From assembly GCA_964551875.1 (NCBI GenBank), contig CAZKEV010000004.1:3398-67397 (forward strand): DNA of 64,000 nucleotides, in the 5' to 3' direction. Position numbers and translations under genes: made by a program. This DNA comes from an uncultured Methanomicrobiales archaeon (lineage in GTDB: Archaea > Halobacteriota > Methanomicrobia > Methanomicrobiales > JACTUA01). A model generated the notes under the pieces. It did no database searches. It was not told the origin of the DNA and saw only the letters and a list, made by a program, of their open reading frames with translations. Positions 14,902 to 35,516 of the stretch are shown in pieces. The first letter of the stretch is position 1, and each line of letters starts with the position of its first letter.

Positions 14902-14933
14902 GCCGTTTGAAAGTTACCTGATTACCAATTCAC

Positions 14934-15875: not shown

Positions 15876-16257
15876 ATATTCCCTTCGACCTGCCTATGAA
15901 ACCCTGAAGGCTGCATCGTACCTTCTGGAGGGAGGATACTCCAACGATGCGGTGAGCAGGGCATACTACGCCATGTTCTACGCAGCCCGTGCCCTTCTTG
16001 CGTCACGCGACATGTACCCGAAGGGGCACAAGGGCCTGATCATCCAGTTCGGGCTGGAATGCGTGAAGAAGGGCCTTATCGAGGAGTCCTACGGGCGGAG
16101 CCTGGCCCACGCGAAGGACCGCAGGGAGTTCTTCGACTACAGCGCAGACACCCAGGTTGCCCCTGAAGAGGCAGCCCGGATGGTGGAGGACGCCCGCGCC
16201 TTTGTCGACCGCATCAGGAAGGCTTTCGCAGACCTGGGTATCGATCCGGAGATCTGA
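15868..16257 (+). CDS. HEPN domain protein (toxin-type partner of MNT)
   Basis: Helical 129-aa protein with AVSRAYYAMFYAARALL and RREFFDY motif, paired with the NTase. Confidence 0.75.
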   Translation: MHEYSLRPAYETLKAASYLLEGGYSNDAVSRAYYAMFYAARALLASRDMYPKGHKGLIIQFGLECVKKGLIEESYGRSLAHAKDRREFFDYSADTQVAPEEAARMVEDARAFVDRIRKAFADLGIDPEI

Positions 16258-16802: not shown

Positions 16803-17960
16803 ATGGATTCGTACTCTGAGAACAGAGCGGGTGTTTTTGTTCATCAGGACGGGGGATATGACACATTTGTCCCGCACCCGTTGCCTCCAAAAGGCCTGGA
16901 TCTTGACGAAGGCCTTTTATTCCTGCTTTCAAAGGCTGATAGTGCACTGGCACGTTTGGATGGTGTCACCCAGGTCCTCCCGAACCCTGACCTGTTCGTC
17001 GCGATGTACGTGAAGAAAGAGGCACTCCTAAGTTCCCAGATCGAGGGTACACAGGCCTCGCTCCAGGGTGTCCTGGAATTCGAAGCCCATATGAAACCGA
17101 AAGATGATATCAACGAGATACGGGAAGTCCTGAATTACATCAAGGCCCTGCATCACGGCATCGAGAAGCTGGAATTTTCAGATGTATCTCTCGATCTGAT
17201 CCACGAGATCCACAGGTTCCTGATCAAGGGAACCAGGGGGACGCACAGGCTCCCCGGTCAGCTCCGGAGGGTACAGAACTGGATAGGCCTTCACGGAGGC
17301 ACGATCCATGATGCTGTATTCATTCCCCCGCCACCGGAGAAAGTCCCGGAGTTGATGGGAGACCTGGTACAGTTCATCCAGGCCGGGGACAAAACCCCGA
17401 CCCTCGTCAAGGCCGCACTCATCCATGCCCAGTTCGAGACGATCCATCCTTACCTGGATGGAAACGGGAGAATGGGAAGATTACTGGTAACCTTTTACCT
17501 CTGTAGAGAAGGCGTATTATCGAGACCCCTCTTATACCTGAGTTATTACCTGAAGAAGAACCGCGAGAGGTACTATTCACTCCTCAACGAGGTACGGCAC
17601 CAGGGAAACTGGGAGGCCTGGCTGGAGTTCTTCTTCCAGGGGGTCATCGAGGTCTCCGGCAACTCGATCGAGACGGCAAAGCGGATCATCCGGCTGAAGG
17701 GCGAGTTGATCGAGAAGCTCCTGGAGAGCAATATCAGCGGCGTTCACGCAGTCAAACTGGTGGACGACCTGTTTATTCATCCGGTCATGACCATTGCACA
17801 GGCTGCCGATGCCCTGAGGATCAGCCGCCAGGCGGCCACAAAACTGGTGGGAAAATTCGAGAGAATCGGCATCTTAAAGGAGATCACCGGAAAGGAGCGG
17901 TATAAAAGGTATATCTTTATCGACTATGTGAAGATCATCGAAGAAGGTACACGGACCTGA
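16803..17960 (+). CDS. Fic family protein (AMPylase-type) with C-terminal wHTH-like region
   Basis: HPYLDGNGRMGRLL matches the Fic motif HxFx(D/E)GNGRxxR. 385 aa. Confidence 0.85.
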   Translation: MDSYSENRAGVFVHQDGGYDTFVPHPLPPKGLDLDEGLLFLLSKADSALARLDGVTQVLPNPDLFVAMYVKKEALLSSQIEGTQASLQGVLEFEAHMKPKDDINEIREVLNYIKALHHGIEKLEFSDVSLDLIHEIHRFLIKGTRGTHRLPGQLRRVQNWIGLHGGTIHDAVFIPPPPEKVPELMGDLVQFIQAGDKTPTLVKAALIHAQFETIHPYLDGNGRMGRLLVTFYLCREGVLSRPLLYLSYYLKKNRERYYSLLNEVRHQGNWEAWLEFFFQGVIEVSGNSIETAKRIIRLKGELIEKLLESNISGVHAVKLVDDLFIHPVMTIAQAADALRISRQAATKLVGKFERIGILKEITGKERYKRYIFIDYVKIIEEGTRT

Positions 17961-18074
17961 TGAATTCCAGCCGGGCACAAGCCCGTCTTCCCGGATAAAA
18001 AGACCGAAAAAGAACTTCACAGAAGAGTTCCCCTACCCCCTTATCCCCGAGACCCACCTTTCCGTTTCTCCCCA

Positions 18075-18486
18075 CAGCAGGGTCCTTGAGCCCTACCCCG
18101 GCCTCCGCGAGACCCTCGCGGAACTCAAACGGCGGGGCTTTCCCCTGGCTGTCCTCACCGATGCGCACAACGGGAACGCCCTCGCCCGGCTCAGGAAGGT
18201 GGACCTCGTCCACTTCTTTGATTTTATTATTTCTTTCGATATGACGGGCTGCAAGAAGCCTGCCCCGGATGCATTTTTATTAGCTTTAAGAAAATTGCAG
18301 ACTTTGCCTTCGGAGACGTTACTTGTTGGTGATAGCCTCCGACGTGACATTGCTCCGGCTCAGAAATTGGGGATGATTACAGCGTATGCGGCTTATGGGG
18401 ACAGGAATATCCGAACCCCGGACCACCCACAATGCAGGCCGGATTTTGTGCTGACGACCATTGAGGAGCTGGTAGGGTTGGTGTGA
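18075..18486 (+). pseudogene. HAD hydrolase 3'-end fragment (copy C)
   Basis: Encodes ..PYPGLRETLAELKRRGFPLAVLTDAHNGNALARLRKVDLVHFFDFIISFDMTGCKKPAPDAFLLALRKL...ELVGLV*, collinear with ~12008..12419. No 5' half is present. Confidence 0.8.
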
Positions 18487-18654
18487 CTTAGTTCTATTTT
18501 GACGGGTGGAGAGGATGCCGGCACAAGCATGCTGGAGGTGTGACTAAAGAGATTAAAGGAGAAGGAGTAAAATGGAGGGTCATTAATTTGTTTTAATAAA
18601 CATTTTATAGGACTATAATTATATTCAAGGAAAACATATACCTTCAACGTCGAA

Positions 18655-19119
18655 ATGTTCTTATCATTTATTGATCGCGCAAAGAGGCAATATTATAAAC
18701 TCGTCCTGATTATTGGAAATTTTGGGCTAAAAAAATCTAAATTCCTTCTCAAATATTGCTTTGATGAAGGACTTTTTTATTATAATCTTAATCTCGAACT
18801 GAGTAAACGCTTGATTGGAATTCCATCTGACCATCGAATCTCATCAATTGAAACAACGGTGGGAGAGGTCCTCCAATCGAATCCAGGGAATTCCCTAGTC
18901 CTTGATCATATCGAACTACTTTATGTGAGAGAATTCTGTCTTCAACCCTTACAACTTCTCAAAACGCATAGTAGGAATAAAGTAATTATCGTTGCGTGGA
19001 ATGGTGAGTATGATGGAAAGAAACTAACGTATGGTAAAAGTGGCGATGAAGAATATCAGGAGTATGTAAGAGATGAGCTTAAAGGCATAGAAATTGTTCG
19101 AATCGAGGATCTGGAGTGA
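18655..19119 (+). CDS. brxF: BREX type 3 small P-loop-like protein BrxF
   Basis: 154-aa first gene of the operon, in the position and of the size of BrxF. P-loop-like LIIGNFGLKKSKF. Confidence 0.6.
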   Translation: MFLSFIDRAKRQYYKLVLIIGNFGLKKSKFLLKYCFDEGLFYYNLNLELSKRLIGIPSDHRISSIETTVGEVLQSNPGNSLVLDHIELLYVREFCLQPLQLLKTHSRNKVIIVAWNGEYDGKKLTYGKSGDEEYQEYVRDELKGIEIVRIEDLE

Positions 19120-19123
19120 GATA

Positions 19124-22100
19124 ATGAAATACGGCGAACTTGTAGCGTTTGAACCCATTGAAGAAATAGTCCAGCTTCGGGAAGCTGACAAAAAAAGTGA
19201 GGCTATACGTCTGATTAAAACTTATGTTATTTCTGAGGGTATGGCAAAAAACCTTCAGAATGCTGTTTTCCCTCAACTCGACCATTCAAGTGCGCTTGAT
19301 AAAAAAGGGCTTTTTATCGTCGGAAATTATGGAACCGGGAAATCACATTTGATGGCAGTCATCAGCTCAATTGCTGAAGATGTCGAGATGGTGTCGTATC
19401 TTCAGAACGCTGCACTTCAGAACGATGCAAAGACAATTGCAGGCTCATTCAAAATCATCAGACTTGAGATTGGTGCATCCAAAAAGAATCTTAGAGATAT
19501 CATCTGCGGAGAACTTGAAAAAGGATTGAAGAATTTCGGAGTAACCTACCAATTCCCCCCTTTTAGCGAAGTAACAAATAACAAAGACTTCCTCGTCGAA
19601 ATGATGGGATATTTTCATGAAAAATATTCGGATAAAGGTTTGCTCCTCGTTGTAGACGAACTCCTCGATTATCTGCGCTCACGTTCTGAAGGAGAACTGA
19701 TTCTTGACCTGAATTTCCTCCGTGAGATCGGTGAGGTCTGCCGTCTTTCAAAATTCAGATTCATGGCTGGCATTCAGGAAGCATTGTTCGACAATCCTCG
19801 GTTCGGATTTGTCGCAAACTCAATACAGCGAGTCCAGGCAAGATTCCACCAGGTCAGAATTCTCAAAGAGGATGTTTCGTTTGTCGTCGCAGAACGTCTT
19901 TTAAGGAAGGATGCCAAGCAGAAGGCAAAAATTCGTAATCATCTCCAGAAATTTACGCCATACTACGGTGATATGAACGAACGGCTTGAGGAATATGTCC
20001 GGCTCTTCCCCGTTCATCCTGCTTATCTCGAATCCTTTGAACGCATGTATATCGTCGAGAAACGAGATGTTCTCAAGACCTTAAGCAGAGAGATCAAATC
20101 TTTAATCGGTACAAAAGTCCCGGAGGAGGAACCCGGCATCATCTCGTTTGACTCGTATTGGAATGCTATGAAGGCTGATGCCTCGCTCGCGACCAACCCA
20201 GATATCAAAAATGTTCTCGAGAAAGGTCAGATCCTTGAAGGCATTCTCCAGAAATCGTTCCCAAAACCACAATACCGCCCATCGGCTATCAGGATTATCC
20301 ACGCTTTGGCGGTTCACCGTCTCACAACAGGTGAAATTTTTGCACCGATCGGGATGAATTCAGAAGCAATCCGTGATGAGCTCTGCATCTTCTTGCCCAT
20401 TCCGGAAAAGGATTCCGAATTTCTCAGATCAACCGTTGAGACAATAATGCGTGATATCAGCAAGACGGTGAGCGGACAATTCATTTCCTCAAATGAGAGC
20501 AACGGGCAATATTACCTCGATCTGAAAAAAGACATCGATTACGATGCCCAGATCATAAAAAGAAGTGAAACGTTAGATACCTACAAACTTGACCATTATT
20601 ACTTCGACGCCCTCGCTCGAGTGATGGAAAGGCCCGAAACAACGTATGTTCCCGGTTATAGAATCTGGGAGCATGAACTGATTTGGAAGGAGAGGAATTC
20701 CGGGCGATTGGGATACCTCTTCTTTGGAGCTCCCAATCAGCGCTCGACAGCGCAGCCTCCACAGGATTTCTACATCTATTTCATCCAGCCATTTGATACT
20801 CCGGAGTTTACCGATGAGAGAAAACCCGATGAGGTATTTTTTTATCTCGTCGACCGACCGGAGGAATTCGATACCGCTCTACGCTTGTATGCAGGTGCCC
20901 GGGAGATGGCGAGCACATCAGGGGCAACTACCAAACGGATCTACGAGGATAAAGCAAGTGAGTATCTCAAGACCATGGTAAAATGGCTGCGGGAGCATAT
21001 ATTCACCGCCTTCGATGTCGTCTACCAGGGAGATCGCAGAAAGCTGGTCGAATGGGCAAAAGGTGCGGCGATTCCAACGGGCGCCGATGTCAGGGAGACG
21101 ATTGACAAGCTTGCTGCTTCATGTCTGGCACCCCACTTTGCTGAAATTGCACCCGACTATCCGAAGTTCTCTCAGGTCATCCGAAAGACCGATCGTGAGG
21201 AGGCGATGAGGGACGCGATAAAGATCTTGCGAGGAAGCGGTCTCAGGACCCAGCGTGGTATCGCAGTTCTCGACGGACTGGAACTACTGGAAGGAGATAC
21301 AATCTCACCAGATAAATCGAAATATGCCCGCTATCTCCTAAAATTGTTGCAGAAGCGTGGAGAAGGCCAGGTCCTCAACCGATCGGATATCATCAGCAAT
21401 GTCCGAGGGATCGAGTTTGATGAGAAGTTCCATGTCGAACCAGAACTGGTTATGGTCGTGCTTGCTGCCCTCGTGTACCATGGAGATCTCGTCATTGCCT
21501 ATCCAGGGAAGAAGATCGATCCCACCATGCTGGATGATCTCGCAAAGATGAACCACGATGACCTGATCGCGTTCAAACACCTGGAACAGCCGAGGAGTAC
21601 GCCGATAGAAACTCTCGCCGAGCTCTTCACCATGCTCTCTCTCACACCAGGGCTGATCAAAAATCCTGATACACAGAATGAGGCGATAAAAGCACTTCAG
21701 ACAGAAGTTACCCGACGCCTGGAACAGCTTGTGGAAATCCAGCAGAAATTGCAGAACCGGCTGACCCTCTGGAGTGTTGAACTCCTCTCCGATCAGGAGC
21801 GAGAGCAGATCCGGTCCCAGGTGGATGGATTAAAGGAATTTCTCGAATCGCTCCAACGGTTCAATACCCCGGGAAAACTGCGGAATTTCCCACATACGAA
21901 ATCAGATATTGTGCGGCAGAAGAGCGGCTTTGAGGCTATCAAGGAACTCGATCAGCTGACCAAGTTTGTGGCTGAGTTCTCTCCATTGGTGGCCTACCTT
22001 TCAGAGGCTGAGGTGATCCTTCCTACCGATAACCCGGCCCGGGTGGCGATTGGGGAGGCAAAGAAACGATTCGCCTCGGATTTGCAAGATTCAAAGAAAA

Positions 22101-22813
22101 GGCTTGACCGGGAATTCCGCACTGACCTGACCCGTGAGCTTGAACGGTTGAAGCAGGGCTACATAGAAAATTACTTTGATCTCCACCGTCACGCAAGACT
22201 CGGCGTGCAGGAAGATGATCTGAAGAAGACGTTGATGAACGATTCCCGTCTCAAACAGCTCACCAGCCTCGCGAGCATTGAGATCTTGCCCAAGCGACAA
22301 CTCACCGAATTCCAGACCATGCTCTCTGCTAATATGATGACCTGCTTCTCCCTGACTGACAAGGACCTGGAATCATCGACGATATGTCCCTATTGTAAAT
22401 TCCGCCCCATGGAGCAGCTGGAGGTAAAACCGGTTAATCAGCTAATCTATGAGCTGAATGATCAACTCGATGATCTCTACCAGGATTGGACCTCCACTCT
22501 CTTGACTAATCTTGAGGATCCTATAGTGAAGAAGAACATCGGGCTCCTCAAGGCACAGGAGAAGAAGTTGATCCAGGAATTCATAATCTCAAAGTCCCTT
22601 CCGGCAGACCTCCCCAGTCCCTTCCTCAGAGCCCTTCAGGATGTCTTCACCGGCCTTGAGAAAGTAACTATTAAACTCGATGACCTCAGGAAGGCACTGA
22701 TGGAGAAGGGTTCCCCGTGTACGGTCGATGATCTTCAGAACCGATTCGAAGAGTATGTTGCATCCCTGATGAGAGGAAAGGATGTGAAGAAGGTCCGTAT
22801 TGTGGTGGAGTGA
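19124..22813 (+). CDS. brxC: BREX ATPase BrxC/PglY
   Basis: ~1229 aa. Walker A GNYGTGKSHLM, Walker B-like LLLVVDELLD, long helical C-terminal region. I chose the ATG at 19124, 4 nt after the brxF stop. Confidence 0.8.
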   Translation: MKYGELVAFEPIEEIVQLREADKKSEAIRLIKTYVISEGMAKNLQNAVFPQLDHSSALDKKGLFIVGNYGTGKSHLMAVISSIAEDVEMVSYLQNAALQNDAKTIAGSFKIIRLEIGASKKNLRDIICGELEKGLKNFGVTYQFPPFSEVTNNKDFLVEMMGYFHEKYSDKGLLLVVDELLDYLRSRSEGELILDLNFLREIGEVCRLSKFRFMAGIQEALFDNPRFGFVANSIQRVQARFHQVRILKEDVSFVVAERLLRKDAKQKAKIRNHLQKFTPYYGDMNERLEEYVRLFPVHPAYLESFERMYIVEKRDVLKTLSREIKSLIGTKVPEEEPGIISFDSYWNAMKADASLATNPDIKNVLEKGQILEGILQKSFPKPQYRPSAIRIIHALAVHRLTTGEIFAPIGMNSEAIRDELCIFLPIPEKDSEFLRSTVETIMRDISKTVSGQFISSNESNGQYYLDLKKDIDYDAQIIKRSETLDTYKLDHYYFDALARVMERPETTYVPGYRIWEHELIWKERNSGRLGYLFFGAPNQRSTAQPPQDFYIYFIQPFDTPEFTDERKPDEVFFYLVDRPEEFDTALRLYAGAREMASTSGATTKRIYEDKASEYLKTMVKWLREHIFTAFDVVYQGDRRKLVEWAKGAAIPTGADVRETIDKLAASCLAPHFAEIAPDYPKFSQVIRKTDREEAMRDAIKILRGSGLRTQRGIAVLDGLELLEGDTISPDKSKYARYLLKLLQKRGEGQVLNRSDIISNVRGIEFDEKFHVEPELVMVVLAALVYHGDLVIAYPGKKIDPTMLDDLAKMNHDDLIAFKHLEQPRSTPIETLAELFTMLSLTPGLIKNPDTQNEAIKALQTEVTRRLEQLVEIQQKLQNRLTLWSVELLSDQEREQIRSQVDGLKEFLESLQRFNTPGKLRNFPHTKSDIVRQKSGFEAIKELDQLTKFVAEFSPLVAYLSEAEVILPTDNPARVAIGEAKKRFASDLQDSKKRLDREFRTDLTRELERLKQGYIENYFDLHRHARLGVQEDDLKKTLMNDSRLKQLTSLASIEILPKRQLTEFQTMLSANMMTCFSLTDKDLESSTICPYCKFRPMEQLEVKPVNQLIYELNDQLDDLYQDWTSTLLTNLEDPIVKKNIGLLKAQEKKLIQEFIISKSLPADLPSPFLRALQDVFTGLEKVTIKLDDLRKALMEKGSPCTVDDLQNRFEEYVASLMRGKDVKKVRIVVE

Positions 22814-25422
22814 TCGAAACGACAGAAAAAAAGGAATACCGTCTCACGAAAGAAATCCTCGACCAGATGCGGACCATCAAAGGATTTCCCCTCGGTAAAG
22901 ACGAAGATATCATCGCACTCTCTGATCCACTGTATTATACCGCATGTCCGAACCCGTGGATTGGCGAGTTCATCAAAGAACATGGGAAATCCTACGATCC
23001 AGCGACCGATACCTACCAGCGGGAGCCGTTTGCCGCCGATGTGAGCGAAGGTAAGAACGATCCGATTTACAATGCCCATTCTTATCACACAAAGGTCCCG
23101 CATAAAGCCATTATGCGGTATATCCTGCACTACACCGAACCTGGCGATATCGTCTTCGATGGATTCTGCGGGACCGGGATGGCCGGCGTTGCAGCACAGC
23201 TCTGTGGGAATCCGGACCCAGAATTTAAAGAACAGATCGAGCGGGAAATGCCGTACATAAAATGGGGTGTACGAAAGGCGATACTCAATGATCTCTCCCC
23301 AGCGGCGACGTTCATAGCGTACAACTACAACACCCCGGTTGATGTTGTGAAATTAGAACGCGAGGCAAAACGTATCATTGCTGAAGTCGAGAGAGAATGC
23401 GGTTGGATGTATGAGACACCGCATCTGGTGGACGGTAAACCAATATTAACGGAAGAAATTGACGGAGCAAAACGACAGGTGAAAGGACGGATCAATTTCA
23501 CTGTATGGAGTGACGTATTCATCTGCCCCTCATGTGCCAAAGAGATGACCTTTTGGGAAGTTGCTGTGGATCTCGAGCATGGTCAGATGCTTGATGAATT
23601 CCACTGCCCTCACTGCGATGCATCTGTAACAAAACGGAGTCTTGAACGGGCACGAGAATCTGTCTTTGATGATGCACTCCAAACTACTATTAAAAGGGCA
23701 AAACAGGTGCCAGTGCTCATTAATTACAGCGTTCAGGACGTTAAAGGGAAATGGAAGCGTTTTGAGAAAACACCGGATGAAACTGATTTTACGTTAATTA
23801 AAAAAATTGAGGAGAAGAAAATACCGTACTGGTATCCAACCAACAGGATGCCAGAGGGTGATGAATCCCGAAGAAATGATGATATTGGAATAACCCATGT
23901 GCATCATTTTTATACAAAAAGAAATTTATGGATATTATCAACACTATTCCAAAAAGTTTTATCATTTGATAAGGAGATCGGCAGAAAAATATTGTTTGCA
24001 TTCAATAATGTTCAGCAAAGACATTGCAAAATGAACGCTTTCCGATTTAATGTTTCTTTTCCTTCAAATATTACGAGTGGAACGTTATATGTCGCATCCC
24101 TTATGCGTGAAAGTAATTTTTTTGATCAACTGGAGAATAAAATTCTTAGAAGATTACTTCCAATTTTTCGAGAGAAATCATATTCCAAAGAGAATTTTGT
24201 AATCGAAACTAATAGTGCACAATTCACTAAACCGCAGAGAAATTCCATCGATTACATCTTTGTCGATCCCCCCTTCGGCGGAAATCTCATGTATTCTGAG
24301 CTGAACTTTCTCTGGGAAGCGTGGCTCAAAGTCTTTACCAACAACCAGCAAGAAGCACTCGTTAATACCGCCCAGCGGAAAGGATTGGCCGAATATCAGC
24401 ACATCATGGAGGAATGTTTCAAAGAGTTCTACAGTATTCTCAAACCCGGACGCTGGATGACCGTAGAATTCCATAATTCTCAGAATTCTGTCTGGATGGC
24501 GATTCAGGAGGCGCTCTCCCGTGCCGGTTTTGTTGTCGCTGATGTCCGCACGCTTGATAAGAAACTGGGTACGTTTAAGCAAGTAACTTCAAAAGGGGCG
24601 GTCAAGCAGGACCTCATCATCTCCGCCTACAAACCAAACGGCGGGCTGGAGGAGCGGTTCAAGCTCACCGCAGGCAAAGTTGAGGGTGTCTGGGATTTTG
24701 CCCGGCAACATCTGAAGCACCTGCCCGTTGTGGTTGAGAAGGACGGTGTGCTCCAGGTTGTCGCGGAACGGCAACCCCATCTCCTCTTTGACCGGATGGT
24801 GGCTTTCCATGTCCAGCGGGGTGTAATCGTGCCGATATCAGCCGGTGACTTTTATGCCGGACTCCGGCATCGTTTCCCAGAGCGGGATATGATGTACTTC
24901 CTTGAACAGGAGGCATTGGAGTACGATAAGAAAAGGATGATCGCAAAGCGTGTAGAGCAGACCTCGCTTTTCGTCCACGATGAGAAGAGTGCTGTCCAGT
25001 GGCTCCAGACCGAACTCACCGATCACCCGCAGACATATCAGGATATCCAGCCGAAGTTTCTCCAAGAGCTGCACCAGGATAAGTTCGAGAAACTACCGGA
25101 GCTTTCTGAAATATTAAATGAAAATTTCCTGCAGGACGCTTCTGGCAAATGGTATGTGCCGGACCCGAACAAGCAAGCAGATTTAGATAAAATACGGGAG
25201 AAGGCGCTCCTCAGGGAATTTGAGGAGTACAAAGTGACGAGAGTGAAACTCAAGATGTTCCGCACTGAAGCGGTCCGAACGGGATTTAAAAAATGCTGGT
25301 CAGAACGTGATTATGCAACGATTATCGCCATCAGCGAACGACTGCCGCTTCAGATACTCCAGGAAGATCCGGATCTCTTGATGTACTATGACAATGCGGT
25401 GACGAGGGCCGTTTCAAAATAA
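22810..25422 (+). CDS. pglXI: BREX type 3 DNA methyltransferase PglXI (N6/N4 MTase family)
   Basis: FDGFCGTGMAG (SAM motif I) and IFVDPPFGGN (motif IV, DPPF). GTG start overlaps the brxC stop (GTGA). Confidence 0.8.
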   Translation: MIETTEKKEYRLTKEILDQMRTIKGFPLGKDEDIIALSDPLYYTACPNPWIGEFIKEHGKSYDPATDTYQREPFAADVSEGKNDPIYNAHSYHTKVPHKAIMRYILHYTEPGDIVFDGFCGTGMAGVAAQLCGNPDPEFKEQIEREMPYIKWGVRKAILNDLSPAATFIAYNYNTPVDVVKLEREAKRIIAEVERECGWMYETPHLVDGKPILTEEIDGAKRQVKGRINFTVWSDVFICPSCAKEMTFWEVAVDLEHGQMLDEFHCPHCDASVTKRSLERARESVFDDALQTTIKRAKQVPVLINYSVQDVKGKWKRFEKTPDETDFTLIKKIEEKKIPYWYPTNRMPEGDESRRNDDIGITHVHHFYTKRNLWILSTLFQKVLSFDKEIGRKILFAFNNVQQRHCKMNAFRFNVSFPSNITSGTLYVASLMRESNFFDQLENKILRRLLPIFREKSYSKENFVIETNSAQFTKPQRNSIDYIFVDPPFGGNLMYSELNFLWEAWLKVFTNNQQEALVNTAQRKGLAEYQHIMEECFKEFYSILKPGRWMTVEFHNSQNSVWMAIQEALSRAGFVVADVRTLDKKLGTFKQVTSKGAVKQDLIISAYKPNGGLEERFKLTAGKVEGVWDFARQHLKHLPVVVEKDGVLQVVAERQPHLLFDRMVAFHVQRGVIVPISAGDFYAGLRHRFPERDMMYFLEQEALEYDKKRMIAKRVEQTSLFVHDEKSAVQWLQTELTDHPQTYQDIQPKFLQELHQDKFEKLPELSEILNENFLQDASGKWYVPDPNKQADLDKIREKALLREFEEYKVTRVKLKMFRTEAVRTGFKKCWSERDYATIIAISERLPLQILQEDPDLLMYYDNAVTRAVSK

Positions 25423-25544
25423 TATGGGACGGAAGGATCCGTTTCATGAATTCAAACTACGTATTACTCCAGCTCAAGGTTTTTAACGGGATGTTTATGA
25501 TATGGAATCGACCAATCGAAATATAACAATCCCCATTTTCCTCT

Positions 25545-28187
25545 ATGCCCCCAAAAAATCACATAGATCCCGGTACATGGCTCTGGAGTACCATGTACCA
25601 TGAGACCGTTCAGCTCATAAATTCAAATGAAATCGGAGACCAGATCTATTATCGGGTTTGGGTTCCGGGAAAAAATGATGTACTCATTAGGTCTTCATCA
25701 GAATTTTTACCAATTGATCAGGCAACACCTTTATCGAGAGAGGAAATTATTTATCGTGCTGCCGCAGGGAAGGTCGCTGAAGCCCTCGCCCAGAACCCTC
25801 TCATCTCCCCTCTTTGTTCTGACGTGATCCCGCTTCCGCACCAGATCCATGCTCTCTCCCGAGCCATGCAGAAAGAGAAGGTCCGATATCTCCTTGCGGA
25901 TGAGGTCGGTCTGGGGAAGACCATTGAAGCTGGATTGGTCATTAAAGAACTCAAAATCAGGAAGAGAATCAAACGCACCCTCATTCTGGCGCCAAAAGGA
26001 CTGGTCCGGCAATGGATCGAGGAGATGCGCCAGAAATTTAGTGAGGATTTCAAACTCCTCCTCCCCGACAGTGCTGAAAAGCTCACGGGCAGCGATGCGG
26101 ATATCTGGCACCTCTTCGATCAGGTTGTTGTTTCCCTTGACTCGGTCAAACCATTGCGGTACCGAAGAGGATGGACGACACAGGAGATTGAGCAGTATAA
26201 CCAAGCACGATTCAAGAACCTCATCACAGCGGGGTGGGACCTAATCATCATCGATGAATCCCATAAACTGGCCGGAACAAGTACACAGGTAGCACGGTAC
26301 CGGTTGGGGAAAGGACTTGCATCAGCCGCTCCCCATCTCCTCTTGCTGTCTGCAACTCCTCATCAGGGGAAAACGGATGCATTTCTGCGGCTCATGAGTT
26401 TCCTTGACAAAAAGACCTTCCATGATGCCATGGAAGTTTCTCGGGATTTGGTTGCTGAATACGTCATAAGGACAGAGAAACGAAAAGCAATCGATGTTCA
26501 CGGTCAGCCGCTCTTCAAACCCCGACATACCCAAATGATGGCGATTACATGGAGCGCTGAACATGGACTCCAGGAGGACCTCTATCGCAAAGTCACAGAG
26601 TACGTCAGGTCAGGTTATAACAAAGCACGATCCGAGAATCGGAATTATATCGGCTTCCTTATGGTGCTCATGCAGCGACTGGTCTCCAGCAGCACCCGAG
26701 CGGTACGGATTGCCCTTGAGCGGCGGTTGTCTATTCTTTCCCCGTCGTTGCCTCATAGAAAACCTTCATGCCAGATTGATGAAGACTGGTGGGACTTGGA
26801 TGCGGAAGAGCGGGTTGCGATGCTTCTCTCTTGCGTGCCTCCCGCCTTTCGGGAAGAGTCCAATACAGTCAAAGATCTACTTGCGCTGGCCCGTAAATGT
26901 GAGTCAACCAGGCCGGATGCCAAAGCTGAGGTGCTCAATGATCTCCTTCATAAGGTTCGTTCAAAGGAGAACAATCCTGATCTAAAATTCCTGATATTTA
27001 CCGAATTTGTCACAACCCAGGAGATGCTCATGGAATTCCTTATCGGCCATGGGTTTTCTGTCGTATGCCTGAATGGATCAATGAGTATTGAAGATCGCCG
27101 AGTGGCCCAACAACAGTTCGCCGAGCAGGCCCACGTGATGATCTCAACCGAAGCGGGAGGCGAAGGACTCAACCTCCAGTTCTGCCATATTGTCATCAAT
27201 TACGATATTCCCTGGAATCCCATGCGTCTTGAACAACGGATCGGTAGAGTTGACCGGATCGGGCAATCACATGAAGTCGAGGTGATTAATTTCCTCTTTT
27301 CCGGGACCGTTGAAGAGCGGGTCCATCAAATCCTCGTCGAGAAGTTAATGGTCATACTTCAGGACCTCGGATTTGACAAAATTGGTGATGTCCTCGACTC
27401 TGGTGAGGCAGAACGAAGCTTTGAGGATTTATACCTCCATGCAATACTTGAACCGGAGAAAGCGGAAGAGCGGCTGAATACCTTCATTTCGCATATCCAG
27501 GAACAAGCGAAAGACGAGTGTTCATCCCTAAAAATGCTCGGATCTGAAAATACACTCAGTACCCATGATGCGCGAGAATATTCCCAATCGCTCCTTCCTT
27601 TCTGGCTTGAAGCAATGGTGACGCACTACCTCACTTCCCGTGGTGGTACAGTGGGACGCGGTCTTTTCGGATATAATCTCGTGTTCCCCGATGGATACTC
27701 CATGAACAAGGTATCATTCACTCATAGTGACCCGGAATCGTCAGGAACTCAGATAATCAACCTCTCAAATCGGAGAATAGCCCAGATCTTTCGCGAGATT
27801 CCCTACAATCATCCTGAACAACCAATAGCATATACCGTAATCACAGATCTTCCGAGAGATATCCGAGGTACCTGGTCACTCTGGCGTTTTGAGGTTTATG
27901 GAGAGAATGCTGATGCCGTCTATTATTTTCCCTATTTTATGACTTCCGAAGGAAAAGTGCTGATCACAACGGCAAAGACCATCTGGGAATCCTTGGCAAG
28001 GGGAAATTTCTCCTTCAACTCATCACAAAAGACCAAGAATATTAATGGAAAAAACATTGAAATTGAAATAAAGAAGAGAAGTGAAGAGATATTATCGGAA
28101 GGGAGAACTCGGCAAGAAATAACTGCTATCGATTATTATCCGGTCCTTATCGTTAAGGTGGGAGGTGCAGATAGTGAACTGGCGTGA
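25545..28187 (+). CDS. brxHII: BREX helicase BrxHII (SNF2/DExH superfamily 2)
   Basis: LLADEVGLGKTIEAG, IIIDESHKL, ISTEAGGEGLNLQ, WNPMRLEQRIGRVDRIGQ. Confidence 0.8.
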   Translation: MPPKNHIDPGTWLWSTMYHETVQLINSNEIGDQIYYRVWVPGKNDVLIRSSSEFLPIDQATPLSREEIIYRAAAGKVAEALAQNPLISPLCSDVIPLPHQIHALSRAMQKEKVRYLLADEVGLGKTIEAGLVIKELKIRKRIKRTLILAPKGLVRQWIEEMRQKFSEDFKLLLPDSAEKLTGSDADIWHLFDQVVVSLDSVKPLRYRRGWTTQEIEQYNQARFKNLITAGWDLIIIDESHKLAGTSTQVARYRLGKGLASAAPHLLLLSATPHQGKTDAFLRLMSFLDKKTFHDAMEVSRDLVAEYVIRTEKRKAIDVHGQPLFKPRHTQMMAITWSAEHGLQEDLYRKVTEYVRSGYNKARSENRNYIGFLMVLMQRLVSSSTRAVRIALERRLSILSPSLPHRKPSCQIDEDWWDLDAEERVAMLLSCVPPAFREESNTVKDLLALARKCESTRPDAKAEVLNDLLHKVRSKENNPDLKFLIFTEFVTTQEMLMEFLIGHGFSVVCLNGSMSIEDRRVAQQQFAEQAHVMISTEAGGEGLNLQFCHIVINYDIPWNPMRLEQRIGRVDRIGQSHEVEVINFLFSGTVEERVHQILVEKLMVILQDLGFDKIGDVLDSGEAERSFEDLYLHAILEPEKAEERLNTFISHIQEQAKDECSSLKMLGSENTLSTHDAREYSQSLLPFWLEAMVTHYLTSRGGTVGRGLFGYNLVFPDGYSMNKVSFTHSDPESSGTQIINLSNRRIAQIFREIPYNHPEQPIAYTVITDLPRDIRGTWSLWRFEVYGENADAVYYFPYFMTSEGKVLITTAKTIWESLARGNFSFNSSQKTKNINGKNIEIEIKKRSEEILSEGRTRQEITAIDYYPVLIVKVGGADSELA

Positions 28188-30096
28188 ACCGCTCCTGAAA
28201 AGAATTCTATCGACTGATTCACGCCTCGTCATTCTCCTGGATCCCGATAACCTCCTTCCCGACGAAAGATTTGCCGAGGAGATCCGCAAGTCCCAATACG
28301 ATATTCTTACTTATCGAGACCCAATTGATTTTCGATTCCACTATGAATCCGATTACCGCAGTAAATGGGACAGAGATGAGGCTATCGGAAAGAAATTGCT
28401 CGTTACATTTCAGTCAGCGGATGCCGCTTCGGTTCCTGTGGATCTCAAACATGAAGGAACGGTACTGAAGATCACCATATCAGACGTTTTTCCGCTGTTC
28501 AATCCATTAATCCTAGAACAAATTGGAATCTCGTTATTTGATGAAATCTCCACAAAATGCCAATTTTCGGGAAAAGAAAAACTGAGCGAATCGAATACAC
28601 AAGAATTGATACTTAAATGCCTCTACGGAATTGAGCCTGACCAAATTACAACTTCAATACTATTTATTATCAAACTCTGCACCATTCACAATCAAAACCA
28701 GGAGATTCCAGCCATTCTGTGCGATTATATTGTAAACAAAATAAAACAACAAGTTCAATTAGAAAATATACCTCTTCGTCAATTATTTGACCGAAATTAC
28801 TTCTTCTCGTTTCTTCAGGGGCAATGGGGGCCTTATCTAAGATCAATTCTTGACGAATCCGTACCCGTTATCCCGTTTCATGATCCATCAATTCGGGTTT
28901 TTATTGATACATTCTTCTTTGACGGTCTCCTCCAGCCAATAGAATGTGAGCAATACTCCAGGCTTCCCCAATGGACTTTGTGTGGTGTGAAGATAGATCC
29001 ATTCAATGACGCAAAACGACGAATTGAAGGATTAATGGGATTGCTTGATGGTCATCTACCGGATACCAATGCCAATTACAAAGAATGGATACGTGCGGCA
29101 TGGCGATGGGCAGAAGTAATTTGTCTCTATTCTGGCTTTAAAAAGGAAAAATTGGATAGCACCCTTGATGTGAGGATAAAAAAAATCCATGCTGAAATTG
29201 AAGCTAACTTTGAAAAATGGGTCAAAGATAATTTCAGATCTTTACAGAACACTCCATATCTCCCAAAGCCGGTGGTTGTTCATCATATCGTTCACTACCT
29301 CGCAGCACAATCGAAAAAGAAAATTGCTCTTCTCATCCTCGACGGGCTTGCTCTCGATCAGTGGACATTGATCCGACAGGACCTCCGATCTTCGTTTCGT
29401 TTTGAGGAGGAAGCTCTCTTCGCGTGGGTACCTACCCTCACTTCGATATCCCGCCGTGCAATCTTTTCTGGAGAGAACCCCTACGCTCTTGATGTTTCCC
29501 TTGAGGATTATGAGAGCGAAAGGCGCTTCTGGAATCATTTCTGGATGTCTCATGGCTACAAGGACAATGAAATTGCGCTCATAAAGGCTCTTAAATTCAA
29601 TGATTCGGAAGAAATCGAAGAAATTCACAATATTCAAAATAAACATGTGCTCGGCATCGTCATCAATACAATAGATGATCTCCTGAAAACTTCAGATATT
29701 ACCACATCGGACCTTCACCAGTTTGTAAAAAATTGGATAAACAAGGGACATTTTGTTCGCTTCATACAGAAATTATCGACTTGGGGCTTCGAGGTTTATA
29801 TCAGTTCCGACCACGGAAATATCTGCAGTATAGGGATCGGAAATATTCGTGAGGGAGTATTAGTTGAAGAGAAAAGTGCCAGGGCGAAGATTTATCAAAA
29901 TACTCAATTGAGAGATCGTGCATACAGAGAGATTGGAGAGGGGATACCATATGATGACCCAGATTTTAATTATGCAGTATTACTTTCAGAAGGCCTGGCG
30001 GCATTTTATAAAGAAGGAGTAAAAATCATCTCTCACGGGGGAATATCCCTCGAGGAAATGGTTGTTCCATTTATTGCGATACATAGGGATGAGTAA
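28165..30096 (+). CDS. pglZ: BREX alkaline-phosphatase-superfamily protein PglZ
   Basis: LLILDGLALDQW and YISSDHGN motifs. 643 aa. Overlaps the brxHII end. Confidence 0.8.
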   Translation: MQIVNWREPLLKRILSTDSRLVILLDPDNLLPDERFAEEIRKSQYDILTYRDPIDFRFHYESDYRSKWDRDEAIGKKLLVTFQSADAASVPVDLKHEGTVLKITISDVFPLFNPLILEQIGISLFDEISTKCQFSGKEKLSESNTQELILKCLYGIEPDQITTSILFIIKLCTIHNQNQEIPAILCDYIVNKIKQQVQLENIPLRQLFDRNYFFSFLQGQWGPYLRSILDESVPVIPFHDPSIRVFIDTFFFDGLLQPIECEQYSRLPQWTLCGVKIDPFNDAKRRIEGLMGLLDGHLPDTNANYKEWIRAAWRWAEVICLYSGFKKEKLDSTLDVRIKKIHAEIEANFEKWVKDNFRSLQNTPYLPKPVVVHHIVHYLAAQSKKKIALLILDGLALDQWTLIRQDLRSSFRFEEEALFAWVPTLTSISRRAIFSGENPYALDVSLEDYESERRFWNHFWMSHGYKDNEIALIKALKFNDSEEIEEIHNIQNKHVLGIVINTIDDLLKTSDITTSDLHQFVKNWINKGHFVRFIQKLSTWGFEVYISSDHGNICSIGIGNIREGVLVEEKSARAKIYQNTQLRDRAYREIGEGIPYDDPDFNYAVLLSEGLAAFYKEGVKIISHGGISLEEMVVPFIAIHRDE

Positions 30097-30822
30097 ATGT
30101 CGAAACGGATAGGCTTTGACCGATATATTACCATAGAATGGCTCGACATGATAGCAGGATTGCTACAACATGAGAATGACATCAATAAAATCAGAGCATC
30201 AATGCATTCGTACCTCGAAAAAGAACTTCCTCATTACGAGAGTCGAAAAAAAACTATCTCCATTCTTTTACGAATTTGGTATAAGGTTCCTGATGAATAT
30301 AGGCCCCTACGAGATAGGGCCATAAAGATCCTTTCTACAGCATCCCAAGAAGATCGTATCTGGATCCACTGGGGAATGACACTTCTTGCTTTTCCATTCT
30401 TTAGAGATATTATAACATGGTTGCATCGATGTTTTACTTTGCATGATCATTGCACTATGGGCGAGGTACATCGGAAAATTGAGGAATCATGGGGCTATCG
30501 CACAACAATGAAACCTGCCATAAGAAAAGTGATTCAATCTCTTATTTTATGGGGCGCAATAGATAAAAATTTAAATTCGCATGTTATTACCAGAAAGAAA
30601 TCCTTTGCCGCATCAATAAAAGAAATAGAATTTTGGTTTTTATATGCAATTCTAGCTTCTGAAAATTCTCATTCGATACCTGTTGAGCGTATGAATAATA
30701 TTCCAGCCGCGTTTCCTTTTTTACTGACTATAAATCCCTCTGACCTCGTAAAATCAGAGAATTTTTCCTTACAAATGGTTGGTGGAAAAACAGAGATTGT
30801 TCTAACAGAAGAAAATGTGTAA
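30097..30822 (+). CDS. brxA: BrxA-like (DUF1819-type) protein, last gene of type 3 BREX
   Basis: 241 aa, starts the nucleotide after the pglZ stop. Called from position and size in the type 3 gene order. Confidence 0.6.
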   Translation: MSKRIGFDRYITIEWLDMIAGLLQHENDINKIRASMHSYLEKELPHYESRKKTISILLRIWYKVPDEYRPLRDRAIKILSTASQEDRIWIHWGMTLLAFPFFRDIITWLHRCFTLHDHCTMGEVHRKIEESWGYRTTMKPAIRKVIQSLILWGAIDKNLNSHVITRKKSFAASIKEIEFWFLYAILASENSHSIPVERMNNIPAAFPFLLTINPSDLVKSENFSLQMVGGKTEIVLTEENV

Positions 30823-30932
30823 TCCACCGAGAGAGAAATGTCCCCCCTTACCTGATCGACTACGCCATCCACCGCCCGAATAAATAATCTAGATAAAAGA
30901 CAATGAAATTATCAGCGAGATCTGGATAGACC

Positions 30933-31583
30933 ATGCGCTCCCTCCTCATCCTCAGCGGCGGTGTCGACAGCACAACTCTATTGTATGATCTCAGAAGCCA
31001 GGGCTACGAAGTAGAGGCAATCACCTTCGACTACGGCCAGAAGCACAAGAAAGAGATTGAGTTCGCGAGGAAGACCTGCAAGAAACTGAATGTACCCAAT
31101 ACCGTCCTGGATCTCAAGATCTTAAACGAGGTCGCCCCGTCCAGTTTAACAAGAAACAATATCGAAGTCCCCGAAGGGCACTATACCGAGGAGTCGATGA
31201 AGGCGACCGTGGTCCCGAACAGGAACATGATCTTCCTCTCCCTCGCGGCGGCCCGGGCCATCGCGGGCGGCATCCCGCACCTCTTCTACGCGGCCCACTC
31301 GGGGGACCATGCCATCTACCCGGACTGCAGGCCGGTCTTTGTGAGCGCCATGGAGACGGCCCTCCACCTCTGCGACTGGACCGATATCACGCTCCATGCC
31401 CCGTACCTCCACCTCACCAAGGCCGATATCGTGAAGCTGGGCACCGGGCTCGGAGTCGATTACTCCCTCACCTGGACCTGCTACCGGGGAGAGGCCCTCG
31501 CCTGCGGGAAGTGCGGCTCCTGCACGGAGCGGCTCGAGGCGTTCAGGGAGGCGGGAGTGGAGGACCCGGTGGAGTACGGGTGA
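30933..31583 (+). CDS. queC: 7-cyano-7-deazaguanine synthase QueC (full-length copy)
   Basis: LILSGGVDSTT PP-loop, NRNMIFLS, and C-terminal zinc-site CYRGEALACGKCGSCTERLEAFREAG. Confidence 0.9.
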   Translation: MRSLLILSGGVDSTTLLYDLRSQGYEVEAITFDYGQKHKKEIEFARKTCKKLNVPNTVLDLKILNEVAPSSLTRNNIEVPEGHYTEESMKATVVPNRNMIFLSLAAARAIAGGIPHLFYAAHSGDHAIYPDCRPVFVSAMETALHLCDWTDITLHAPYLHLTKADIVKLGTGLGVDYSLTWTCYRGEALACGKCGSCTERLEAFREAGVEDPVEYG

Positions 31584-31652: not shown

Positions 31653-32096
31653 TCATTCCCCGGGTCCTGTCTTTTCCAGGAGTTTTTCCATGCGGGTGAG
31701 GAAGGCGTGAGCACCCCTGACGGCGGATTCCACCTCCTCGCGTGAAGGGGCCGCCGAGAAGGAGTACTGGTCCATGTGGCGGGCGCTCCTCATCCTGCTG
31801 AACTGCGCAATCCATGTCGGTTCAAGAGCACCCCGTGCGGCGTACGAGCCGAGATAGAGCTCGACGCAGATATGGCTCTTCTCCCTGACGCCGTCCCGGT
31901 AGAGGATTGCCCGGGCGGCATGGAAGAAGGCATTGTAGCAGGAGATCAGAGAAGACCGGTTGGCACCGGCAACCAATGCCTTCTTCGCCTCCTCCTGCCA
32001 GACGCGGGACTGCTCCAGGGATCGCCTCGCCTTGGCCAGGGAAGGCTCGACCCTCCGTAACAGGTCCTTTGCGTAGCACTCTTCAAGCGAGGTCAA
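31653..32096 (-). CDS. HEPN domain protein
   Basis: CYNAFFHAARAILY and RSARHMDQY motif. Overlaps the upstream NTase gene by 14 nt. Confidence 0.75.
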   Translation of the reverse strand: MTSLEECYAKDLLRRVEPSLAKARRSLEQSRVWQEEAKKALVAGANRSSLISCYNAFFHAARAILYRDGVREKSHICVELYLGSYAARGALEPTWIAQFSRMRSARHMDQYSFSAAPSREEVESAVRGAHAFLTRMEKLLEKTGPGE

Positions 32097-32697
32097 AGCC
32101 CTTTCCCCTGAGCACGATGGCCGATCTCATGAAGGCGTGGTAGAAAGGGGGATCCTCCCTCTCCAGGTCCCCGAGTTTCTGGGGAGACAGGAAGAGGAGA
32201 TGGACCTCCACCCCGAGATTCCCGGTCAGGATTGAGATGAGCTCCCCCAGGGAAGCCTCACCGGGATAGTTCCTCGCGAATACCCAGAGATCCAGGTCGC
32301 TTCCCCTGGTATTCGTGCCCGTGGCCCAGGACCCGTACATGCCAATCCCATCTGCCCACCCCGGCAGGGATATCACGGGCATGAGCCGATCCAGGTTCAG
32401 GAGGATCTTCACCGCCCTTGTGAGAGATCCATCTGCGGGCCGGTAAGATCGGCCTTCCCGGCTAAGAAGCCCGTGCCTGACAAGGAGGGGGAGATACCGG
32501 GAGACGGGGGCTTTTGAGAGGCCGGTAGCCCTGGAGAGAGACTGGACCGTGGAGGAGGGCTCAGAGAGGGCCTGCCGGAGGATCGAGACCCGCCCTTCAG
32601 TGCTGAACAGTTCGGAGAGCACAGATGATCTCTTTGTCCCCGGAAGATAAAAAATTGTTTCCATACAAGCAACGAATCGTTGCTCTATCAGCAACAA
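32083..32697 (-). CDS. wHTH-fused nucleotidyltransferase (MNT-type)
   Basis: LSRATGLSKAPVSRYLPLLVRHGLL (wHTH) plus MYGSWATGTNTRGSDLDLWV (NTase). The true start may be Met12 (METIFYL, 32664), just downstream of a palindrome. Confidence 0.7.
   Translation of the reverse strand: MLLIEQRFVACMETIFYLPGTKRSSVLSELFSTEGRVSILRQALSEPSSTVQSLSRATGLSKAPVSRYLPLLVRHGLLSREGRSYRPADGSLTRAVKILLNLDRLMPVISLPGWADGIGMYGSWATGTNTRGSDLDLWVFARNYPGEASLGELISILTGNLGVEVHLLFLSPQKLGDLEREDPPFYHAFMRSAIVLRGKGFDLA
32668..32684. promoter_or_regulatory. perfect palindrome AGCAACG-AAT-CGTTGCT just upstream of the probable start of the wHTH-NTase gene
   Basis: Read directly. A further AGCAA half-site follows at ~32690. Confidence 0.4.
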
Positions 32698-32740
32698 TAT
32701 GTTTCTTGAACGGCAACGGGCCCTGATGCTCCGGGGAGGG

Positions 32741-32954
32741 CAACTGGACCGATATCACCCTCCATGCCCCGTACCTGCACCTCACCAAGGCCGATATCGT
32801 GGAGATCGGCGCGAGGCCCGGGGTCGACTACTCCCTTACCTGGACCTGCTACCAGGGAGAGGAACGAGCATGCGGGAAATGCGGGGCCTGCACCGAGAGG
32901 ATCGAGGCGTTCAGGGAGGCGGGGGTGAGGGACCCGGTGGAGTACTCAGATTAA
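32741..32954 (+). pseudogene. queC 3'-end fragment 1
   Basis: Encodes WTDITLHAPYLHLTKADIVEIGARPGVDYSLTWTCYQGEERACGKCGACTERIEAFREAGVRDPVEYSD*. No 5' part is present. Confidence 0.8.
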
Positions 32955-32979: not shown

Positions 32980-33330
32980 TCAGGTGTTTCCTGCGGGACG
33001 CAGGATATTCTCAATTTTTTCCTTCAGGTCAGGAATGTCTTTCTGGATGGTCTCCCACACAGCCTCGTAATCAACACCGAAATAATGATGGATGAGCTTG
33101 TCCCTCGTCCCTGCGGCCTTTTTCCACGGGATGGCAGGGTGATTCTCCTTGAATTCACTGGAAATATTCTTTGCTGCTTCACCGATGATGGTGAGCATCC
33201 TCTCGATACCTGCTCTTTCCAGGGGCCTGTCCTTCAGGTCTCCCGCTGAAGTAATGCTCCTGGAGAAATCCTCTATCTGGAGGATCGCGTCGTACATGTG
33301 CTGTATATAGGCGCGATCCCTCTGGTTCAT
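32980..33330 (-). CDS. hepT: HepT (DUF86/HEPN) toxin
   Basis: RDKLIHHY (Rx4HxY HEPN motif). 4-nt overlap with the upstream MntA-type gene. Confidence 0.85.
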   Translation of the reverse strand: MNQRDRAYIQHMYDAILQIEDFSRSITSAGDLKDRPLERAGIERMLTIIGEAAKNISSEFKENHPAIPWKKAAGTRDKLIHHYFGVDYEAVWETIQKDIPDLKEKIENILRPAGNT

Positions 33331-33623
33331 CCCAGGATCACCACTTCATCATGCCGGACCGAATCGATGAGGTAGGGGCTTACCGCCTTTTCGGTAAGGA
33401 GGTCCACCTTGAGGTGCAGAGCTTGTTCAAGCTCCTCTTCGATTCCTACAAGGTCGAAGAGGCTCTTAGGTTGGGCAAACCTGACGAGGATATCGATGTC
33501 GCTCCCCGGGCCTGCTTCCCCTCGTGCATAGGATCCAAAGACCGCGACTCTCCGGACCCCGTGGGGTTTCAGGATCCTGAGAATGGTCTCCTTCACTTCC
33601 CCTTGAAGCCGTTTACCGGTCAT
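33327..33623 (-). CDS. mntA: MntA-type nucleotidyltransferase antitoxin
   Basis: VAVFGSYARGEAGPGSDIDILV. Confidence 0.85.
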   Translation of the reverse strand: MTGKRLQGEVKETILRILKPHGVRRVAVFGSYARGEAGPGSDIDILVRFAQPKSLFDLVGIEEELEQALHLKVDLLTEKAVSPYLIDSVRHDEVVILG

Positions 33624-33635
33624 GTGAGAACCGTC

Positions 33636-33923: not shown

Positions 33924-34057
33924 CGATCTCTGTTTAGGTTCTCCCGCTTTTTATAGGTATAGTGTTAAATGCAACGCGATTCGAGAGTAGAATCATTTAA
34001 CACGACTGGAGAAGATCCAGAGGGTCTTTGATTGTAAGGGCGGTCATCACGAGGAAT

Positions 34058-34853: not shown

Positions 34854-34856
34854 GTT

Positions 34857-35381: not shown

Positions 35382-35516
35382 GTATGGAACGAAGAAATCC
35401 GATCGGGCGCTAAATTGGTTTTGCCCATTGTATTCTCCTTGAATCCCTGGTTTTTGTCTCCTGTTTCTTGATGGGCGCTCGTCCAGGCTGCCTTTTTGGG
35501 GGTGCTTGCCCAGTGT

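Follow-up and report, generated by a model that had tools for sequence, protein, structure and literature searches.

The operon and its assignment

Does a methanogen chromosome carry a complete type 3 bacteriophage exclusion (BREX) system, and how would such a system have come to lie there? The question is raised by a 64,000-nt stretch (the window) of contig CAZKEV010000004.1, in which six open reading frames (ORFs) on the + strand, at 18655-30822, run in the same direction and contain zero internal stops. The locus is very probably a complete, canonical type 3 BREX operon that was acquired horizontally and lies in a defence hotspot 5' of queC on a Methanomicrobiales chromosome. Type 3 BREX was reportedly defined by Goldfarb et al. 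in 2015.

The first-pass annotation had read the six co-directional genes as standing in type 3 order, and the ORF map indeed matches the canonical arrangement brxF-brxC-pglXI-brxHII-pglZ-brxA (PMC10799925). Profile searches, which it had proposed as a check, agree: all six proteins match BREX models of PADLOC, four of them over their full length, with E-values from 5e-36 to 0 that lie far past chance, and PglZ and BrxF also pass the NCBIfam cut-offs for BREX-3. The Pfam families suggested in advance were recovered for PglZ (PF08665) and for the methyltransferase (N6_N4_Mtase); DUF1819 and DUF499 were not, as BrxA, like BrxF, has no Pfam match and BrxC belongs to DUF6079. PADLOC, NCBIfam, Pfam, the fold of BrxA and gene order concur on the proposed type 3 identity. 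From BrxF to BrxA, the proteins are 154, 1229, 870, 880, 640-643 and 241 amino acids long, in agreement with their homologues in a Methanomicrobiales metagenome-assembled genome (MAG; locus L081, 156/1226/871/860/640/244 amino acids) and in the closest related locus, L084 (870/877/640/239 amino acids). In 85 related loci compared by tblastn, BrxC-PglXI-BrxHII-PglZ-BrxA was the commonest pattern, with BrxF upstream where the flank was long enough; a minority lacked BrxHII or carried it 3' of BrxA.

Other defence systems also combine a helicase with a methylase, and we considered whether the operon might instead be DISARM or a DUF499-centred BREX-related system. BrxHII does match DrmD models (PADLOC 8e-96; NCBIfam 355 bits), and homology links the core of type 3 with DUF499 systems, which are tripartite, consisting of a DUF499 ATPase, a methylase and a helicase without PglZ (PMC12839542). 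DISARM is recognised by DrmA, DrmB (DUF1998) and DrmC or DrmD together with a DISARM methylase. However, the DrmD score on NF038317 falls short of its cut-off (355 against 610 bits), DrmA, DrmB and DrmC are missing from the operon and its other five genes belong to BREX families, by which DISARM was ruled out. A DUF499-centred system was ruled out by the ATPase, which is of the DUF6079 and not the DUF499 family, and by the presence of PglZ, BrxA and BrxF, with PglZ and BrxF at BREX-3 scores. We regard the probability of either alternative as practically nil and describe the locus as type 3 BREX, with the following features.

18027..18486, + strand: 3' end of a HAD hydrolase gene, third truncated copy, forming the left border (repeat search, alignment, codon analysis)
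18560..18654, + strand: AT-rich upstream region with the TATA-box-like strings TTTTAATAA, TTTTATAGG and TATAATTATATT (read from the sequence)
18655..19119, + strand: brxF, 154 amino acids (PADLOC, NCBIfam, homologue alignment)
19124..22813, + strand: brxC/pglY, 1229 amino acids (PADLOC, Pfam DUF6079, motifs)
22810..25422, + strand: pglXI (brxXI), 870 amino acids (PADLOC, Pfam N6_N4_Mtase, motifs)
25423..25544, + strand: 122-nt intergenic gap, a slot for accessory genes in relatives (sequence)
25545..28187, + strand: brxHII, 880 amino acids (PADLOC, Pfam SNF2-rel_dom/ResIII/Helicase_C, similarity to RapA)
28174..30096, + strand: pglZ, 640 amino acids counted from GTG 28174 (NCBIfam, PADLOC, Pfam PglZ, invariant columns)
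30097..30822, + strand: brxA, 241 amino acids (PADLOC, AlphaFold2, Foldseek)
30823..30932, + strand: right border; synteny with L086, a close relative's metagenome contig, begins at 30931, 2 nt 5' of the queC ATG at 30933 (blastn)

The HAD copy at the left border is host-like in sequence, and its stop codon lies 168 nt 5' of brxF. The intergenic region between them (18487-18654) has a guanine plus cytosine (GC) fraction of 0.36, and its AT-rich part at 18560-18654, with TATA-like strings at 18592-18631, is presumed to be the archaeal promoter of the operon. On the right, QueC was identified with both Pfam and NCBIfam. The operon was searched for bounding repeats, inverted or direct, for tandem repeats and for simple repeats in pglXI of the kind that would suggest phase variation, and none of note was found within 18.6-30.8 kb.

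Translational coupling, which had been proposed for the operon as a whole, is supported at four junctions. The stop codon of brxF (19117-19119) is separated by the 4 nt 'gata' from the brxC ATG at 19124, from which the 1229 amino acids are counted, the ORF itself opening mechanically at TTG 19094. The GTG of pglXI at 22810 overlaps the brxC TGA at 22811-22813 as GTGA, and pglZ (TAA 30094-30096) abuts brxA (ATG 30097), all three as first annotated. The overlap of brxHII with pglZ had been given as 23 nt, from a pglZ start at GTG 28165 (643 amino acids); it shrinks to 14 nt if the gene begins at GTG 28174 (640 amino acids), which is the more likely start because GGTGGGAGGTG precedes this codon and an identical database protein (P0001) is 640 amino acids long. 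Shine-Dalgarno-like strings (GGAGGTG/GGAGTGA) were found 5' of pglZ and brxC. Between pglXI and brxHII there is instead the 122-nt gap at 25423-25544, so coupling does not extend to every junction; an internal promoter may lie in this gap. In other type 3 loci, an insertion of BxaP separates pglXI from brxHII (PMC10799925); the operon described here has no accessory gene at this position or between brxC and pglXI. Locus L084 carries a 644-amino-acid HATPase_c_4 gene between pglXI and brxHII (5431-7365), and an 'RNA-binding domain-containing protein' is encoded between brxC and the methylase on plasmid pRA04 (locus L166, 3549-5417).

The six proteins and their possible mode of action

The motifs that the first-pass annotation quoted for BrxC, PglXI, BrxHII and PglZ were each found at a sensible position. 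BrxF, a small BrxB-like P-loop/iSTAND protein, matches its PADLOC model at 5.3e-36 and NCBIfam NF033453 (BREX_3_BrxF) with 129.8 bits (cut-off 50). BrxC aligns over residues 1-1229 with positions 1-1231 of its PADLOC model (E=0, 1718 bits) and matches Pfam DUF6079 (PF19557) with 1519.7 bits; motifs of an AAA+ ATPase are present at residues 67 (Walker A, GNYGTGKSH) and 174 (Walker B, LLVVDE).

PglXI scores E=0 and 1339.6 bits with PADLOC and 57 bits with Pfam N6_N4_Mtase. It contains FDGFCGTGMAG at residue 116 (motif I, FxGxG) and DPPFGGN at residue 486 (motif IV, DPPF), followed by a C-terminal extension of ~300 amino acids past the DPPF region. A DPPF motif IV in amino-methyltransferases points to N6-adenine methylation, and PglXI is a predicted N6-adenine DNA methyltransferase. 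Nested between motifs I and IV is an insert with CPSC at residue 239 and CPHC at residue 266. This architecture agrees with the description of type 3 methyltransferases, whose hallmark is a target-recognition insert with four cysteines nested in the Rossmann fold (PMC12839542).

BrxHII matches the PADLOC BrxHI|BrxHII model (E=0, 1116 bits) as well as Pfam SNF2-rel_dom, ResIII and Helicase_C, and has DEVGLGKT at residue 119 (motif I), DESH at 237 (motif II) and QRIGRVDRIGQ at 564 (motif VI). Its nearest solved relative is E. coli RapA, an ATPase associated with RNA polymerase (5.7e-38), and by these similarities it is a RapA-like Swi2/Snf2 ATPase, and neither a Ski2/Lhr-like BrxHI nor a BrxL. 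BrxHII and RapA have a common domain layout, except that BrxHII has one N-terminal Tudor domain where RapA has two (PMC12839542), and BrxHII is encoded in a defence operon. At 880 amino acids, the present protein is shorter than the ~940 amino acids given for the family (PMC12839542).

PglZ matches NCBIfam NF033449 (BREX_PglZ_3) over residues 10-639 of 643 with 598.1 bits (cut-off 250), as well as PADLOC (1.1e-171) and Pfam PF08665 (73.5 bits). It has an alkaline-phosphatase-fold metallohydrolase domain with SSDHGN at residue 544, and in alignment with its homologues it keeps the invariant columns, including D390, T423, D546, H547 and H621. BrxA matches PADLOC over its full length (2.8e-68) and gave zero matches in Pfam or NCBIfam. 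Since its family support came from PADLOC alone, we modelled it with AlphaFold2 from 23 homologues. The model has a predicted local distance difference test (pLDDT) score of 91.9, and its top Foldseek matches in the PDB are the BrxA structures 7ZGE_A and 3BHW (probability 1.00), with target-normalised template modelling (TM) scores of 0.61 and 0.66, respectively. BrxA is predicted from this model to be a helical, winged-helix-rich, DNA-binding protein. Comparison with the PDB returned no close solved homologue for PglZ, PglXI or BrxC: PglZ matched PorX only (1.7e-12), PglXI only the motif region of CcrM, and BrxC matched no solved structure.

Type 1 BREX, known from E. coli, Acinetobacter and Salmonella, and type 5 BREX of Haloarcula hispanica share with the operon the core of BrxC, PglZ and a methyltransferase, together with BrxA. 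Type 1 and archaeal type 5, the latter characterised in 2026, distinguish self from non-self by N6-methyladenine (m6A) at non-palindromic motifs. Type 3 differs from these types: it lacks BrxL and BrxB, its methylase is the distinct PglXI, in whose Rossmann fold the target-recognition domain is nested, and its helicase is the Swi2/Snf2 protein BrxHII. By analogy with types 1 and 5, and from domain content, we infer the following mechanism. PglXI would add m6A at one adenine of a short non-palindromic host motif and so mark self DNA, its specificity probably being set by the nested target-recognition insert, a four-cysteine zinc knuckle, and by three predicted C-terminal helix-turn-helix domains. 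A core made up of the AAA+ ATPase BrxC, the metallohydrolase PglZ and PglXI would detect unmethylated motifs on viral or plasmid DNA entering the cell. BrxHII would stand in for BrxL of type 1, translocating along or remodelling the foreign DNA at the expense of ATP, and its action would block replication or pass the DNA to a nuclease activity. BrxA, through DNA binding, and BrxF, as a BrxB-like and probably non-catalytic P-loop protein, would serve as adaptors or regulators.

Foreign origin and the slot upstream of queC

The genes that flank the operon encode PycA, PycB and RtcB. PycB is 89-97% identical to proteins from Methanomicrobiales MAGs and ~77% identical to that of Methanoregula, and Rfam detects a tRNA-Met (CAU) at 43207-43317 on the - strand, the anticodon loop of which contains a 39-nt intron. 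ARAGORN returned zero tRNAs for the 64-kb window and thus missed this intron-bearing tRNA. Given the PycB homologues, the presence of RtcB and the intron in tRNA-Met, we identify the host as an uncultured Methanomicrobiales archaeon, a methanogen, which bears out the earlier description of the flanks as archaeal.

Across the operon GC falls sharply, to 0.45 in a genome of about 0.65, and the GC fraction at third codon positions (GC3) of the BREX genes is 0.31-0.54, compared with 0.73-0.92 for the HAD gene, queC, pycA, pycB and rtcB. These differences mark the operon as foreign to the genome, gained horizontally and unameliorated.

Identical copies of PglZ and BrxA occur on only one NCBI contig (75,334 bp), and the next-best PglZ among 5.8 billion database proteins is at most 41% identical. 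The nearest PglZ group mixes bacterial (Nitrospiraceae, 41%) and archaeal (Methanosarcinales) MAGs. In L084, PglXI is ~67% and BrxC and BrxHII are ~59% identical to those of the window, and among the best 80 loci of the contig scan, one is archaeal (L017, from Methanoperedens). The same system is found in many cultured bacteria, in some of them on plasmids; three of five bacterial plasmids with a type 3 PglZ are predicted to be conjugative, and these PglZ proteins were already named as such by the Prokaryotic Genome Annotation Pipeline (PGAP). By megablast, the island matched no plasmid. The operon resembles type 3 BREX in general, including that of the Roseicitreum antarcticum plasmid pRA04 (NZ_CP061499.1), in its six families, their order and their orientation, in a PglZ and a BrxF that pass the BREX-3 models, in the four-cysteine nested insert of PglXI and in its RapA-like Swi2/Snf2 BrxHII. 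It differs from the plasmid examples in its archaeal host and in the sequence of PglZ, which is ~29% identical to theirs.

Further parallels are the loci of Methanomicrobiales (L081/L082, PglZ NLM29097.1, a protein already named by NCBI in L081) and Methanosarcinales (L083, HDN65114.1) MAGs, which are likewise archaeal, have the same six-gene order with near-identical protein lengths, and adjoin archaeal housekeeping genes as the operon of the window does (in L081, those for the PolD small subunit and CofH). They lie at another chromosomal site and range in identity to the window from 35-41% (PglZ) to 64-66% (PglXI). The L081 operon, with a GC of 0.56 in a genome of 0.60, is far better ameliorated than that of the window.

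The position of the operon is shared with other defence systems. L086 (QueC 92% identical; pycAB 92% at the nucleotide level) shares synteny with the window beginning 2 nt 5' of the queC start, and upstream of this point the two have nothing in common (blastn). The slot, occupied by BREX-3 at 18487-30930 of the window, contains DndC, DndD, DndE, DndA, PbeA and PbeC in L086 (1-9999) and a type I restriction-modification methylase in L094 (1-2990; QueC 91% identical). As two close relatives hold either Dnd-Pbe or a type I methylase in the same place, the region just 5' of queC is a core-gene-flanked defence hotspot of this archaeal lineage, and BREX-3 therefore one of several interchangeable systems.

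Several points weigh against a complete and working type 3 system here. The codon usage of the operon is far from that of its host and could limit expression. BrxF has a degenerate Walker A motif, GNFGLKKS (residues 21-28), in which the conserved Gly preceding Lys is replaced, unlike most homologues, which have GxxGxGK[TS]. The 122-nt gap 5' of brxHII interrupts tight coupling, the mechanism is extrapolated from types 1 and 5, and the source is a metagenome-assembled contig. The unameliorated GC3 and the BrxF motif, together with bacterial MAGs such as that of Nitrospiraceae among the nearest relatives and the turnover of slot content among close relatives, would fit recently transferred cargo of bacterial type, silent or non-functional through poor expression or the altered P-loop and heading for decay. 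We consider such a silent passenger unlikely. All six ORFs are full length without stops or frameshifts and retain their catalytic motifs, the AT-rich upstream region with TATA-like strings fits an archaeal promoter, Shine-Dalgarno-like strings precede pglZ and brxC, and the six genes are also retained in other archaea. As for BrxF, some homologues from Bacillota have no P-loop and the family has been termed inactive STAND (PMC12839542), which is why ATP binding by this protein is probably dispensable.

A second doubt concerns the contig itself, in which a low-GC bacterial BREX fragment could have been misjoined to archaeal sequence during assembly or binning. The sharp drop in GC over the operon would suit such an artefact, as would the metagenomic source and the restriction of identical PglZ and BrxA to a single NCBI contig. 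Host-like sequence lies on both sides within one contig, however (the HAD 3' fragment at 18027-18486 and queC at 30933), and independent assemblies of relatives hold foreign defence systems at exactly the same slot. The independently assembled L086 also has queC 3' repeats like those of the window, and in further MAGs of Methanomicrobiales and Methanosarcinales type 3 BREX lies beside archaeal genes (such as those for the PolD small subunit and CofH). A misjoin is very improbable, and we retain the interpretation of a horizontally acquired type 3 BREX operon.

Repeated gene ends, neighbouring cassettes and significance

The borders of the slot belong to two sets of repeated gene ends. A HAD hydrolase gene (11496-12419) has its final 370-430 nt in three copies, which end at 12419, 15293 and 18486; next to the third, on its right, lies brxF. 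The 3'-terminal 200-330 nt of queC are likewise repeated, occurring four times in the window and twice in L086.

12013-12419, 14887-15293 and 18027-18486: copies of the HAD 3' end, 71-85% identity (repeat search, alignment)
31256-31583, 32624-32945, 34042-34364 and 35556-35883: copies of the queC 3' end (repeat search)
10340-10636 and 11545-11838 of L086: copies of the queC 3' end in an independent relative
15555-16257, 31653-32697 (-), 34401-35582 (-), 32980-33923 (-), 36202-36525, 37020-37609 (-), 36570-36848 (-) and 38851-39186: dense toxin-antitoxin field

Each HAD copy ends at a stop codon and has zero internal stops, and the copies differ mostly at third codon positions, on which grounds they are best read as fragments of diverged functional orthologues. 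The queC copies have a common 3' boundary and differing 5' boundaries. Small toxin-antitoxin or defence cassettes lie between the repeat copies, those in the queC intervals each being a small cassette of MNT/HEPN type, and the repeats look as if insertions had occurred serially at the 3' ends of genes. The flanking cassettes gave no match to an integrase or transposase domain. Concatenation of strain variants in the assembly graph was judged an unlikely origin of the repeats, because identity to the reference copy is no more than ~62-91% and the same pattern occurs in the independent L086.

These arrangements bring to mind an exchange hotspot bounded by the HAD gene and queC, of which BREX-3 would be one cassette and which would possibly represent an undescribed mode of turnover of archaeal defence islands. 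The basis for it is the exchange of whole systems among relatives, the diverged, in-frame 3' fragment of a core gene before each small cassette and the lack of an integrase in the flanking cassettes. A circle consisting of gene fragment and cassette would loop out through recombination between repeats, and homologous recombination with the core gene of a different strain would insert it again. We offer this scheme tentatively and hold it to be rather doubtful.

The toxin-antitoxin field comprises three MNT/HEPN pairs, two of them with an MNT protein fused to a winged helix-turn-helix (wHTH). The pairs are joined by at least five other small MNT genes, as well as by a HicB-like antitoxin and a MazF/PemK-like toxin. 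A wHTH-MNT protein encoded at 34857-35582 matches the PADLOC candidate PDC-M05A (9e-23). Between HAD copies 2 and 3, a Fic/DOC adenylyltransferase-like protein with Fic_N, Fic and C-terminal helix-turn-helix domains is encoded at 16803-17960, and the first cassette contains two adjacent genes, at 12745-13716 (323 amino acids) and 13720-14901 (393 amino acids), whose products have no match in Pfam, PADLOC or NCBIfam.

Farther downstream, a P-type cation ATPase gene (40246-43086, - strand) of host-like GC (~0.67) has no nucleotide match in L086 despite synteny on both of its flanks. The segment at ~44.1-54.8 kb is absent from L086, where the tRNA region is almost directly joined to pycA. Two low-GC genes are found in this part of the window, one at 45288-47939 (883 amino acids, with a weak CHAT domain) and the other at 50329-53559 (1076 amino acids, with no Pfam domain and a 66-nt tandem repeat at 52214-52341); both proteins have weak matches, below cut-off, to 'choice-of-anchor' domains.

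What does the locus add to present knowledge of type 3 BREX? The type has been recorded in 919 taxa, of which 28 are archaeal, and has been called little explored (PMC12839542, Nucleic Acids Res 2026), and our literature search found no experimental work on it. The statement in the first-pass annotation that type 3 has not been dissected mechanistically agrees with this literature and with the lack of close solved structures. Its view of the operon as a good candidate for study holds in part: the operon is intact and the type uncharacterised, but the host is uncultured and the operon no easier to test than many bacterial copies. The locus is a divergent copy of a catalogued system and a sound but fairly ordinary find, of limited novelty because the 28 archaeal taxa are already on record, NCBI already names such proteins and the host is uncultured. 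It opens no new question, and bacterial copies in cultured strains are easier to work with. Any intact type 3 operon is nevertheless a possible object of study, given the spread of the system without experimental or structural characterisation. For the organism itself, the operon shows that a high-GC methanogen can harbour a type 3 system in complete, unameliorated form, and the occupation of the same slot by Dnd-Pbe or type I restriction-modification in sister populations informs our understanding of how uncultured methanogens are defended against viruses and of gene flow in them.

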